A DNA stretch of 22,489 bases from a virus (Duplodnaviria > Heunggongvirae > Uroviricota > Caudoviricetes). Positions 12,079 through 12,987 of the stretch are shown one piece after another. Within the stretch, counting starts at the first letter, position 1; each line of letters begins with the position of its first letter. Location of the stretch: positions 1 through 22,489 of IMG/VR virus record IMGVR_UViG_2778261450_000009; one strand, written 5' to 3'. A model generated the notes under the pieces. That model was not told where the DNA came from. It worked only from the letters and a program-made list of their open reading frames with translations, and searched no databases. The translations under genes were made by a program, and so were the position numbers.

Positions 12079-12987
12079 TCAGAATGTTAAGTTGTCACTG
12101 GATTTACCGAATTCGTCAGACATGGCACCAAGACCAGACAGGATATCTATCTGTCGCTGTCGCCCACCTCCGGGAGCGGCTGGCTGTTGCCAGAAATCTT
12201 CGAAGTGACGATCGGGTCCAAAGAACGTCGCAGCCTGCTTCACGAACTGTGTGCCGGTATTTCCTGTAGCACGTACCCAGGCGGCATAACGTCTCACACC
12301 ATCAAGCATGGTCTCCGGTTTTATCCCCTCCCTGATACGGGCTTTCCAGGCTTTGAAGGCTGCTGACTTGGAATTGCCACCAGCACGTTTGGGATATTCC
12401 TGCCAGGCCTGTTCAAATTCCGGTGAATATTCCTGTCGGGCAGAACGTGCTGGTGCAGACGCGTCAGCGGATGCGCCAATAGTGTTTTTACTCTCTGTAG
12501 TATTCTCTGAAGTAATCTCTGTTGTATTCTCTGTAAGATCGAAATTGGTTTTCCCTTCTCCGCGGCGAGGGGTTTCCCGTGTCCGCGGTGAAGGCTTTCC
12601 CTCCTCCGCGAAATTGGGTTTTACAGTTTCCCGAAAACGGGTTTCCCCATTTCGGGAAAACTGATTGTTTTCATTGATAATTTCATTAAGGCGCTCACAA
12701 TCTATACGGTAGAACATTTTGTGCTCAAGACGCTTGTTGGTTTCAACCAAAATGCCTCTGGACACAAGATGCTTACGCGCTACAGCCTGTTGTTCAAATG
12801 TAAGTCCGGTTTCGTGTTGTATCTCTTCACGCGTTTTATGTACGCCTTCCGCTGCATGTGCTTTATCCTGCCAGTAAAAAATCTGACCAAAGAAAATAAC
12901 AGCGTGCGGACTTCCCATGTATTTAACGAGCCCAGGGTAATAAGCAACCGGATGTCCAAAATCGAGCAGAAGATCAGACGGACGCAT
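12079..12987 (-). CDS. Replication initiator (lambda O-like replisome organiser) containing the origin repeats
   Basis: Position directly upstream of the loader and helicase; internal iteron array in the middle of the gene as in lambda O/ori; ATG at 12987 with GGGAGGTG RBS. Family assignment is by context and architecture, not by recognised sequence identity. Confidence 0.7.
   Translation of the reverse strand: MRPSDLLLDFGHPVAYYPGLVKYMGSPHAVIFFGQIFYWQDKAHAAEGVHKTREEIQHETGLTFEQQAVARKHLVSRGILVETNKRLEHKMFYRIDCERLNEIINENNQFSRNGETRFRETVKPNFAEEGKPSPRTRETPRRGEGKTNFDLTENTTEITSENTTESKNTIGASADASAPARSARQEYSPEFEQAWQEYPKRAGGNSKSAAFKAWKARIREGIKPETMLDGVRRYAAWVRATGNTGTQFVKQAATFFGPDRHFEDFWQQPAAPGGGRQRQIDILSGLGAMSDEFGKSSDNLTF
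12491..12660. repeat. Putative replication origin: four tandem 12-bp repeats, three roughly 22-bp GGTTTCCC...CCGCGG iteron-like repeats, and an inverted repeat TTTCCCGAAA / TTTCGGGAAA
   Basis: Read directly from the sequence. Located inside the initiator gene, where lambda places ori. The tandem repeats also encode the repetitive peptide TENTTEITSENTTESKN. Confidence 0.6.

Follow-up and report, generated by a model that had tools for sequence, protein, structure and literature searches.

The 22,489-nucleotide (nt) stretch of DNA analysed here at full length (IMG/VR record IMGVR_UViG_2778261450_000009, hereafter the window) is a lambdoid prophage that converts its host to Shiga toxin 1a (Stx1a) production. 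Positions 12079-12987 of its minus strand hold a gene for a replication initiator of 302 amino acids (aa), taken from the list of open reading frames (ORFs) and annotated as a coding sequence in LC567819; across this region, identity is 99.7% with LC567819 and six sister phages and ~96% with several Stx2 phages. The gene starts with the ATG at 12987, an in-frame GTG at 12993 being the mechanical start of the ORF. Its middle is occupied by a repeat region (12487-12661; gene nt 327-501 of 909), which is very probably the vegetative replication origin of the prophage, built of iterons and a putative unwinding block. A sequence-only reading of this DNA had placed an origin-like array in the middle of an O-like initiator gene; the mid-gene position was borne out, and the span then given (12491-12660) was essentially right, if slightly short at both ends.

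Anatomy of the repeat region

Repeat units are described in gene sense (minus strand), so that their coordinates run from high to low. The region opens with an array of five 23-bp iterons (12547-12661; consensus nTTTTCGCGGAnnnGGGAAACCC), delimited by Tandem Repeats Finder (TRF), a repeat search and a pattern scan: U1 (12661-12639, GTTTTCCCGAAATGGGGAAACCC), U2 (12638-12616, GTTTTCGGGAAACTGTAAAACCC), U3 (12615-12593, AATTTCGCGGAGGAGGGAAAGCC), U4 (12592-12570, TTCACCGCGGACACGGGAAACCC) and U5 (12569-12547, CTCGCCGCGGAGAAGGGAAAACC). Every unit agrees with 15-17 of the 19 consensus positions, and TRF reports 2.7 copies at 12550-12610 with a score of 80. These are the repeats whose period had been put at roughly 22 bp; they are present in five copies, with a period of 23. 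The pattern CCGCGGANNNGGGAAACCC, with ≤3 mismatches allowed, has four matches, all within the array, where 0.14 were expected, and at least four matches arose in none of 100 shuffles. No second direct-repeat array of three or more copies was found anywhere in the 22.5-kb window. DnaA boxes (TTATNCACA, ≤1 mismatch) number 21 in the window against 23.3 expected, and none lies inside the initiator gene.

The first two units together make up an inverted repeat, also seen in the sequence-only reading, whose arms can be drawn as 12624-12641 and 12646-12663 (18 nt, 78% matching) or as 12627-12641 and 12645-12659 (15 nt, 87%). This U1/U2 region contains two clear dyad sites of the TTCCCGAAAnGGGGAA type. 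U3-U5 form imperfect 20-bp palindromes around CCGCGG, with a half-site spacing unlike that of the two dyad sites.

A 12-nt spacer (AATTTCGATCTT, 12535-12546, minus strand) separates the iterons from four AT-rich 12-bp units (nCAGAGAnTACn, 12487-12534, minus strand), the tandem 12-bp repeats of the sequence-only reading, which run from 12534 to 12487 as ACAGAGAATACA, ACAGAGATTACT, TCAGAGAATACT and ACAGAGAGTAAA. TRF detects these 12-mers at 12492-12535 (period 12, 3.7 copies, score 67), and a direct-repeat search finds three copies of a 21-nt unit at 12-nt spacing. We propose that the block serves as the DNA-unwinding and helicase-entry element, and as a mosaic joint. A GC-rich stretch (12436-12486, minus strand; 65% GC at 12440-12479) follows and closes the part of the gene that encodes a disordered linker.

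The spacer carries a GATC at 12537-12540, immediately 5′ of the first 12-mer (TCGATCTTACAGAGA). This GATC recurs in many enterobacterial relatives and is absent from the Gram-positive and Pseudomonas members examined; it may provide an input for Dam and SeqA. Near-identical alleles of the region (among L140, L141, L188 and L189 in IMG/VR, and P0004 and P0006) include some with five 12-mers in place of four, two with a 1-nt deletion in iteron 1 that shifts the frame of the initiator gene, and two whose proteins are missing the residues that iteron 1, or iterons 1 and 2, would specify.

The 12-mer block has a GC content of 32.5% (12480-12539). Within the gene, nearest-neighbour stability is lowest here (-55 kcal/mol per 48 bp, compared with -62 to -77; z = +2.0 in the window), and the gene's most stable stretches (-77 and -73 kcal/mol) lie on either side. 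An easily melted region is located directly 3′ of the iterons in gene sense. Two readings of the 12-mers themselves were considered and rejected: a DnaA-trio register, for which inspection by eye of all three registers gave no consistent 3′-[G/A]AT-5′ phasing, and bottom-strand CTG sites for primase, which would not serve as a universal explanation since the primases of Firmicutes use CTA/TTA.

The 23-bp units are constrained as DNA

The G[GT]AAA(n)CC box of the iterons lies at gene nt 342, 364, 388, 411 and 434, in codon phases 2, 0, 0, 2 and 1. Because 23 is not a multiple of three, the GGGAAAnCC box is read in three codon phases, with EEGKP, RTRETP and RGEGKT as its translations. In a relative that is 85% identical (L190), the box is found at gene nt 365, 388, 411 and 433, so that four of the five window positions are matched to within 1 nt.

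Relatives of the amino-terminal domain (N-domain) of the initiator were gathered independently of the repeats. Eight of 12, with N-domain identities of 48-85%, keep the inverted repeat TCCCGAA-N15-TTCGGGA at a start-to-start distance of 21-22 nt; the window has it as TCCCGAA (12657-12651), 15 nt, and TTCGGGA (12635-12629), within the two dyad sites. The relatives concerned are phages or contigs of E. coli, Burkholderia (BcepIL02), Acinetobacter (WCHABP12), Aggregatibacter (Aaphi23) and Pasteurella (Pmp14). Among relatives, the protein segment after the N-domain is poorly conserved, though the inverted repeat is kept in the DNA. In L193 and WCHABP12 the motif stands in another reading frame, and TTCGGGA-like copies number three in Klebsiella Kp4884, one in each phase (1, 0 and 2). 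The motif is kept in DNA while frames differ and the protein varies, and we therefore regard it as the phylogenetic footprint of a DNA-binding site. Judged by these comparisons, the 23-bp units are DNA elements and not peptide repeats.

A pattern scan against the annotation of phage phi80 showed that the two dyad sites (12628-12643, plus strand; 12643-12658, minus strand) resemble the sites of its initiator, gp15. When the gp15 site TTCCCGAAAACGGGAA was sought with ≤3 mismatches, only these two places in the window matched (0.28 expected), each at 14 of 16 bases. The N-domains of the two initiators have no detectable similarity (BLASTP E=19); that their half-sites are nevertheless almost identical would be explained either by convergence or by very remote winged-helix homology.

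A 12-bp motif shared by phage initiator genes of many phyla

A BLAST search with the 81-bp block matched 120 phage records, and the match lay inside an initiator gene in the 15 records fetched and in nearly all of the others listed. Hosts of these phages include Acinetobacter, Klebsiella, Bacillus, Staphylococcus, Vibrio, Erwinia, Pseudomonas, Providencia, Pantoea and Synechococcus, and in every locus opened the 12-mer block lay directly 3′ of lineage-specific iterons. The exact pattern TACAGAGANTACNNCAGAGA occurs in at least 119 IMG/VR contigs ranging from 30 to 64% GC; 118 of the 119 matches listed are in the same frame of an ORF of 800-1100 nt. In GTDB, 87 of the first 120 pattern matches have the same N-domain immediately upstream, in taxa that include Nostoc, Chlorogloeopsis, Candidatus Gracilibacteria, Pyrinomonadaceae, Candidatus Amarolinea, Desulfuromonas, Smithella, Syntrophomonas, Caldanaerobacter and Comamonas. 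The other ~33 were treated as chance or truncated matches, ~70 chance matches being expected in this 596-Gb collection. The 12-mer is thus found in phage initiators of at least seven bacterial phyla. Within complete E. coli genomes (megablast), the 40-nt 12-mer block is present in 1,509 of 5,426 (~28%), and the whole window origin in only 101.

One E. coli match that was opened, on the STEC409 chromosome (L227), places the 12-mer block in an initiator of the mEp460 type, near Cro/CI- and YdaT-family genes. PGAP names for the E. coli matches listed are inconsistent ('hypothetical protein', 'phage O protein family', 'phage replication protein O'). Searches of the open-access full-text literature with the motif strings and encoded peptides returned no phage paper, and for iterons and replisome organisers the only papers retrieved concerned lambda-type Stx phages and SPP1.

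Codon usage was analysed in 53 dereplicated loci, with only those units counted that were not fixed by the search pattern. Third codon positions in the 12-mers are conserved as well as any, the T of the AnT codon being present in 53 of 53 loci; the positions that vary, the first of codon 1 and the second of codon 3, are non-synonymous. At low-GC loci GAG accounts for 93% of the Glu codons in the 12-mers versus 31% in the rest of the same ORFs, and at high-GC loci Thr is encoded by AC[AT] in 80% of cases versus 32% elsewhere, and Ile by ATT in 100% versus 24%. By this measure the constraint on the 12-mer acts on nucleotides, with synonymous positions fixed whatever the GC content of the genome. 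Successive copies even occupy different frames in TRS1 (spacing 13+11) and in Aaphi23 and Pmp14 (period 13). Four units, fixed synonymous positions and conservation across phyla are consistent with a DNA-unwinding element (DUE) made of short, sequence-constrained repeats.

The ORFs that bear the motif share a single N-domain superfamily, for which Pfam has no model: pairwise searches link 65 of 71, and a hidden Markov model iterated from the window N-domain reaches 67 of 71 while missing lambda O, P22 gp18, phi80 gp15 and SPP1 G38P. Their carboxy-terminal domains (C-domains) fall into 17 clusters. The origins of other initiator classes (lambda O, P22 gp18, phi80 gp15, SPP1 G38P and phiP27 L17) each have a different AT-rich repeat and no 12-mer.

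Bacillus plasmids of the pBSG3 type (8.4-8.9 kb; B. velezensis and Bacillus sp.; in pBSG3 itself, NC_014104.1, L226, at 700-890) carry an orphan origin cassette of ~165 nt. It consists of three iterons (CCTACAGGGAAAGA), three perfect 12-mers and ~45 further nt, and is homologous to the middle of the initiator gene of Bacillus phage PM1; the cassette has no initiator ORF and stands in another reading frame. Iterons and 12-mers therefore persist as a DNA unit. In nature, such a cassette might act as a Per-like decoy or as an origin activated by phage.

Initiator genes are mosaics joined at the 12-mers

The initiator gene of phage phiP27 (L17) shares its C-terminal 403 nt with the window at 94% identity; its N-domain (Pfam HTH_36), its iterons (TCAGAATCTGA type) and its AT-rich repeat are all unlike those of the window. 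Homology begins at 12483, a few nt past the 3′ end of the final 12-mer. In phage mEp460, a different N-domain, four iterons of its own (CATCGGGTCAAAATG) and a lambda-O-like C-domain flank a shared 12-mer block, with 97.5% identity over 40 nt and homology confined to 12501-12540. In the IMG/VR contig L184, the N-domain and iterons of the window are joined through the 12-mers to the lambda-type C-domain of mEp460. The Stx2_EH2201 allele differs from the window at 37 positions, 4 of them in gene nt 1-540 and 33 in nt 612-900, which encode the C-domain.

Mosaic breakpoints therefore flank the 12-mer block on both sides, and the unit of inheritance, as read from these alignments, is [N-domain + iterons] / [12-mers] / [C-domain]. 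This is the pattern to be expected of an N-domain that reads the iterons and a C-domain that serves the loader, and in all four cases (phiP27, mEp460, the L184 hybrid and the Stx2 alleles) the iterons co-vary with the N-domain while the C-domain is exchangeable. A further combination was seen in phage BtCS33 of B. thuringiensis (L225, 789-1805), where an N-domain of the 12-mer type precedes a C-terminus that, by eye, is like that of lambda O (…WANEFRLIRERD…NILSPSKLRKQWDRL). If real, this sharing of modules spans the Gram divide.

Domain layout of the initiator

An AlphaFold2 (AF2) model of the initiator, built from 32 homologues, has a mean predicted local distance difference test score (pLDDT) of 53. 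On the basis of AF2, Foldseek and the family alignment, residues 1-108 (12664-12987, minus strand) are assigned to an N-terminal winged-helix domain that presumably binds the iterons. Its folded part covers approximately residues 15-108 (pLDDT 60-81), with helices at 18-24, 27-43, 53-60, 64-76 and 97-108 and strands at 80-84 and 91-95 that form the wing. Residues 109-184 are modelled as a disordered segment (pLDDT ~30). The C-terminal helical domain, assigned from phiP27 L17 identity and AF2 to residues 185-302 (12079-12435, minus strand), is exchangeable and presumably recruits the loader; AF2 models residues 189-256 as helical (pLDDT 65-77). The repeats code for residues 109-167, that is, within the disordered linker between the winged-helix and helical domains.

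The top Foldseek matches in the PDB are all winged-helix proteins, including the plasmid RepA_N initiators 5kbj, 4pql and 4pt7, and DnaD; the predicted N-domain is of the winged-helix fold class. At the sequence level, the initiator matches the PHROG family 'replication initiation protein' (phrog_270, 8e-66) and has no match to any Pfam or NCBIfam family; a PDB sequence search gave no match, and the NCBI label is 'DNA-binding protein'. Homology to lambda O, P22 gp18 or phi80 gp15 is not detectable, and the protein falls outside Pfam PF04492 (Phage_rep_O). The term 'O-like' used in the sequence-only reading accordingly holds for function and architecture and fails as a statement of descent: by sequence comparison, the initiator is not a member of the lambda O family.

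Comparison with characterised origins

Origins of lambdoid and Stx phages lie in the middle of gene O and consist of iterons and an AT-rich region, and O binds AT-rich single-stranded DNA (PMC7466680). In lambda (NC_001416), four annotated 18-bp iterons in gene O (39034-39118) are followed by the AT-rich region. The window is like lambda in having its putative origin in the linker-coding middle of the initiator gene, within the early rightward operon; in the succession, in gene sense, of sites about two helical turns apart (here five units with a 23-bp period), an AT-rich repeat block and a GC-richer stretch; and in a specificity that resides in the N-domain alongside an exchangeable C-domain. 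It is unlike lambda in having five 23-bp units in place of four 18-bp iterons, an N-domain without detectable homology, an AT-rich block of 12-mers in place of ACAAAAGACAnTAT-type repeats (lambda retains a single TCAGAGAATTCT), and a DnaC-like loader with the phage's own DnaB-like helicase, where lambda uses P and the host DnaB.

The phi80 origin in gene 15 (NC_021190; L222, 7664-7740) has four annotated gp15 sites at 21-bp spacing. The two dyad sites of the window carry the same TTCCC...GGGAA dyad; three of the five window units are, in contrast, direct repeats with a CCGCGG centre, and phi80 has no 12-mers. P22 gene 18 and SPP1 oriL in gene 38 likewise have repeats followed by an AT-rich region within the initiator gene, with helicase or loader genes next to it. 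C-domain classes are common to these phages and the 12-mer group (P22-type in Aaphi23; Phg_2220_C in SPP1, Kp4884 and S. aureus phage 37), whereas P22 and SPP1 have other N-domain families and AT-rich repeats of their own, neither with the 12-mer. The order from iterons to an AT-rich, repeat-bearing block is common to the window, lambda, P22 and phi80; the AT-rich sequences differ.

Iteron plasmids offer a further parallel, as do the DnaA-trios of bacterial oriC. Their short repeats are ones in which sequence matters (RK2 oriV 13-mers are bound as single-stranded DNA by TrfA; F has RepE), and DUE repeats may be sequence-specific and Rep-bound, with Rep/DUE 13-mers and DnaA-trios as precedents (PMC10797057). 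Like these plasmids, the prophage has direct-repeat iterons and an initiator predicted to be a winged-helix protein, with RepA_N among its best Foldseek matches; unlike plasmids of the RK2, F and R6K type, it has its putative origin inside the initiator ORF and no DnaA boxes flanking the iterons. The 12-mer is conserved across phyla, whereas DUE repeats are said to vary from one replicon to another (PMC10797057).

Gene neighbourhood

On the minus strand, a cro-like gene is followed by antirepressor and Rha genes, a 77-aa ORF, the initiator, the loader and the helicase; a CI-type repressor gene lies on the plus strand. In LC567819, Q and stx1 come after the equivalent replication genes. Directly downstream of the initiator gene are, on the same strand, a gene for a DnaC/IstB-like AAA+ helicase loader (11190-12077; Pfam IstB_IS21, 4.7e-16; PHROG phrog_50, 7.5e-85) and then one for a DnaB-like replicative helicase (9793-11193; Pfam DnaB_C, 2.9e-72, with a DnaB N-terminal domain).

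The 77-aa ORF (12974-13207, minus strand; phrog_1153, of unknown function) overlaps the initiator start by 14 nt, counted from the ATG at 12987. BcepIL02 gp19 and Aaphi23 ORF21 are small ORFs that likewise overlap the start of the initiator, and the 77-aa ORF may encode a conserved small partner. Further upstream, Rfam matches at gathering level identify a C4 antisense RNA (80.9 bits; 13811-13897, minus strand) and the Hfq-binding small RNA isrK (56.9 bits; 13922-13998, minus strand). Both fall within the 5′ part of the mechanical ORF 13204-14073, in which the Rha domain begins only at residue 127; Rha itself probably starts downstream of the two RNAs. The arrangement resembles an antisense immunity element of the P1/P7 kind, placed upstream of the antirepressor.

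Rfam gave no structured RNA in 12350-12800, even at E≤1. One weak promoter-like match (12674-12701) was rejected as an internal promoter, and one terminator-like hairpin, which is the iteron dyad itself, as an internal terminator; both were at shuffle expectation.

Discussion

The repeats constrained at the DNA level, their position in the linker-coding part of the gene, the co-variation of iterons with the N-domain, the unstable stretch 3′ of them, and the loader and helicase genes that follow all agree with the earlier proposal of a lambda-like iteron origin inside the initiator gene. The repeats very probably mark the replication origin, a so far uncharacterised one of ordinary lambda-style layout. 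Extrapolating from this anatomy, and by analogy with lambda, phi80, P22 and iteron plasmids, we envisage the following mechanism. Transcription from the early rightward promoter would supply the initiator, whose winged-helix N-domain would bind the five 23-bp iterons (as two phi80-like dyad sites and three direct units). The resulting O-some-like nucleoprotein complex would destabilise the adjoining AT-rich 12-mer block, and the exchangeable C-domain would bring the DnaC-like loader and DnaB-like helicase onto the opened 12-mer DNA.

Several observations weigh against this scheme. The array is heterogeneous, with a dyad spacing of ~5-6 nt in two sites and of 14 nt in three units, and a single uniform binding mode is therefore not obvious. 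The 12-mer block ranks only ~415-517 among 22,442 windows for instability and is not the minimum of the window. The structural assignment comes with weak Foldseek E-values (0.03-0.2) and with the low mean pLDDT of the AF2 model. The nearly constant frame of the 12-mers in viral matches makes some peptide-level role possible. Finally, the 12-mer varies within one N-domain family (ACACTAGATTAC in Aaphi23 and Pmp14, ACAAGAGAATAC in WCHABP12), which is a poor simple fit with recognition by conserved N-domain residues.

The strong constraint on the 12-mer motif, together with its tie to one N-domain superfamily and not to a host or a C-domain, indicates sequence-specific recognition during opening; most probably, by analogy with the RK2 DUE 13-mers or DnaA-trios, the 12-mer is contacted in this way and is more than AT-rich filler. 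That the initiator itself is the reader is a tentative suggestion, somewhat short of an even bet. A broader proposal, to which we give a little less credence still, is that the 12-mer is a pan-bacterial, sequence-specific element for origin opening or helicase loading, the phage equivalent of DnaA-trios or RK2 13-mers. It would be read, probably as single-stranded DNA, by a large winged-helix initiator superfamily outside Pfam that has held on to this single DNA partner while iteron specificity and C-domains have diversified. If this were true, orphan 12-mer cassettes on small plasmids could be decoys or origins activated in trans.

The region could instead be an origin whose 12-mers are read by a universal host component, such as an RNA polymerase sigma factor, a DnaB-type helicase, or an R-loop formed by the purine-rich sense transcript. 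The lambda origin is reported to depend on transcriptional activation, and O to make contact with RNA polymerase (PMC3017604). The motif is present in hosts of at least seven phyla, which have only the host core machinery in common, while C-domains and loaders vary freely. Its sense strand is always purine-rich, in constant orientation to transcription; its bottom strand carries TAnTCT, in which the T-12, A-11 and T-7 of a -10 element are kept; and 12 nt would correspond to one turn of a DnaB-type hexamer. We nonetheless consider a host reader unlikely. The motif goes with a single N-domain superfamily and is absent from the origins of the five other initiator classes that operate in the same hosts, no promoter-like site in the region exceeds shuffle expectation, and the propensity to form R-loops would not demand a fixed sequence. 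DnaB, moreover, is not known to have any sequence specificity.

More improbable is the view that the 12-mer block serves mainly as a conserved linker for recombination, allowing in-frame swaps of modules, with no direct role in opening. Breakpoints do occur within the block as well as to either side (12483 in phiP27, 12501-12540 in mEp460, and in L184), copy number ranges from 3 to 5 among near-identical phages, and the frame is almost invariant. Selection for exchangeability is a second-order effect, however, and would hardly fix synonymous sites over at least seven phyla and 30-64% GC. The block also sits exactly where characterised origins unwind, at the helix-stability minimum of the gene, and is kept with iterons in the non-coding orphan cassette. 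As a secondary role, the mosaic alignments indicate that the block does operate as a recombination joint.

It is very improbable that the iterons are an operator for autoregulation or copy control, acting by transcription block or self-titration, with the true origin elsewhere in the prophage. Plasmid iterons do act in autoregulation and handcuffing as well (PMC10797057), and sites within a gene could be roadblocks; against this, the window has no other array of three or more copies and no enrichment of DnaA boxes anywhere, a pure operator would leave the conserved AT-rich block next door without a role, and the layout is that of the lambda, P22, phi80 and SPP1 records, where origin or initiator sites are annotated within the initiator gene. 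Hardly credible at all are slippage-born coding repeats of a low-complexity linker with no cis function: although the encoded segment is disordered and hydrophilic and the 12-bp unit is a multiple of three with variable copy number, slippage predicts that relatives keep the peptide and not the DNA, the opposite of what is observed, and the 23-bp units are out of codon phase, the DNA motif changes frame among relatives, synonymous positions are more conserved than non-synonymous ones, and the pattern is confined to the locus at a frequency far above chance.

An origin at 12487-12661 would define the minimal replicon of a type of Stx phage unlike the lambda-O/P-type Stx phages studied so far (PMC7466680). 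It also suggests a rule for annotation: iterons and then the 12-mer, within a gene that is blank in Pfam and a 'DNA-binding protein' at NCBI. The 12-mer appears to be an unrecognised and very widely conserved cis element of phage origins, present in phages of Staphylococcus, Bacillus and cyanobacteria as well as in E. coli prophages. With such an element, one could test directly how common sequence-specific origin opening is outside DnaA and plasmid Reps, and why the shuffling of phage initiator domains falls exactly at the origin.

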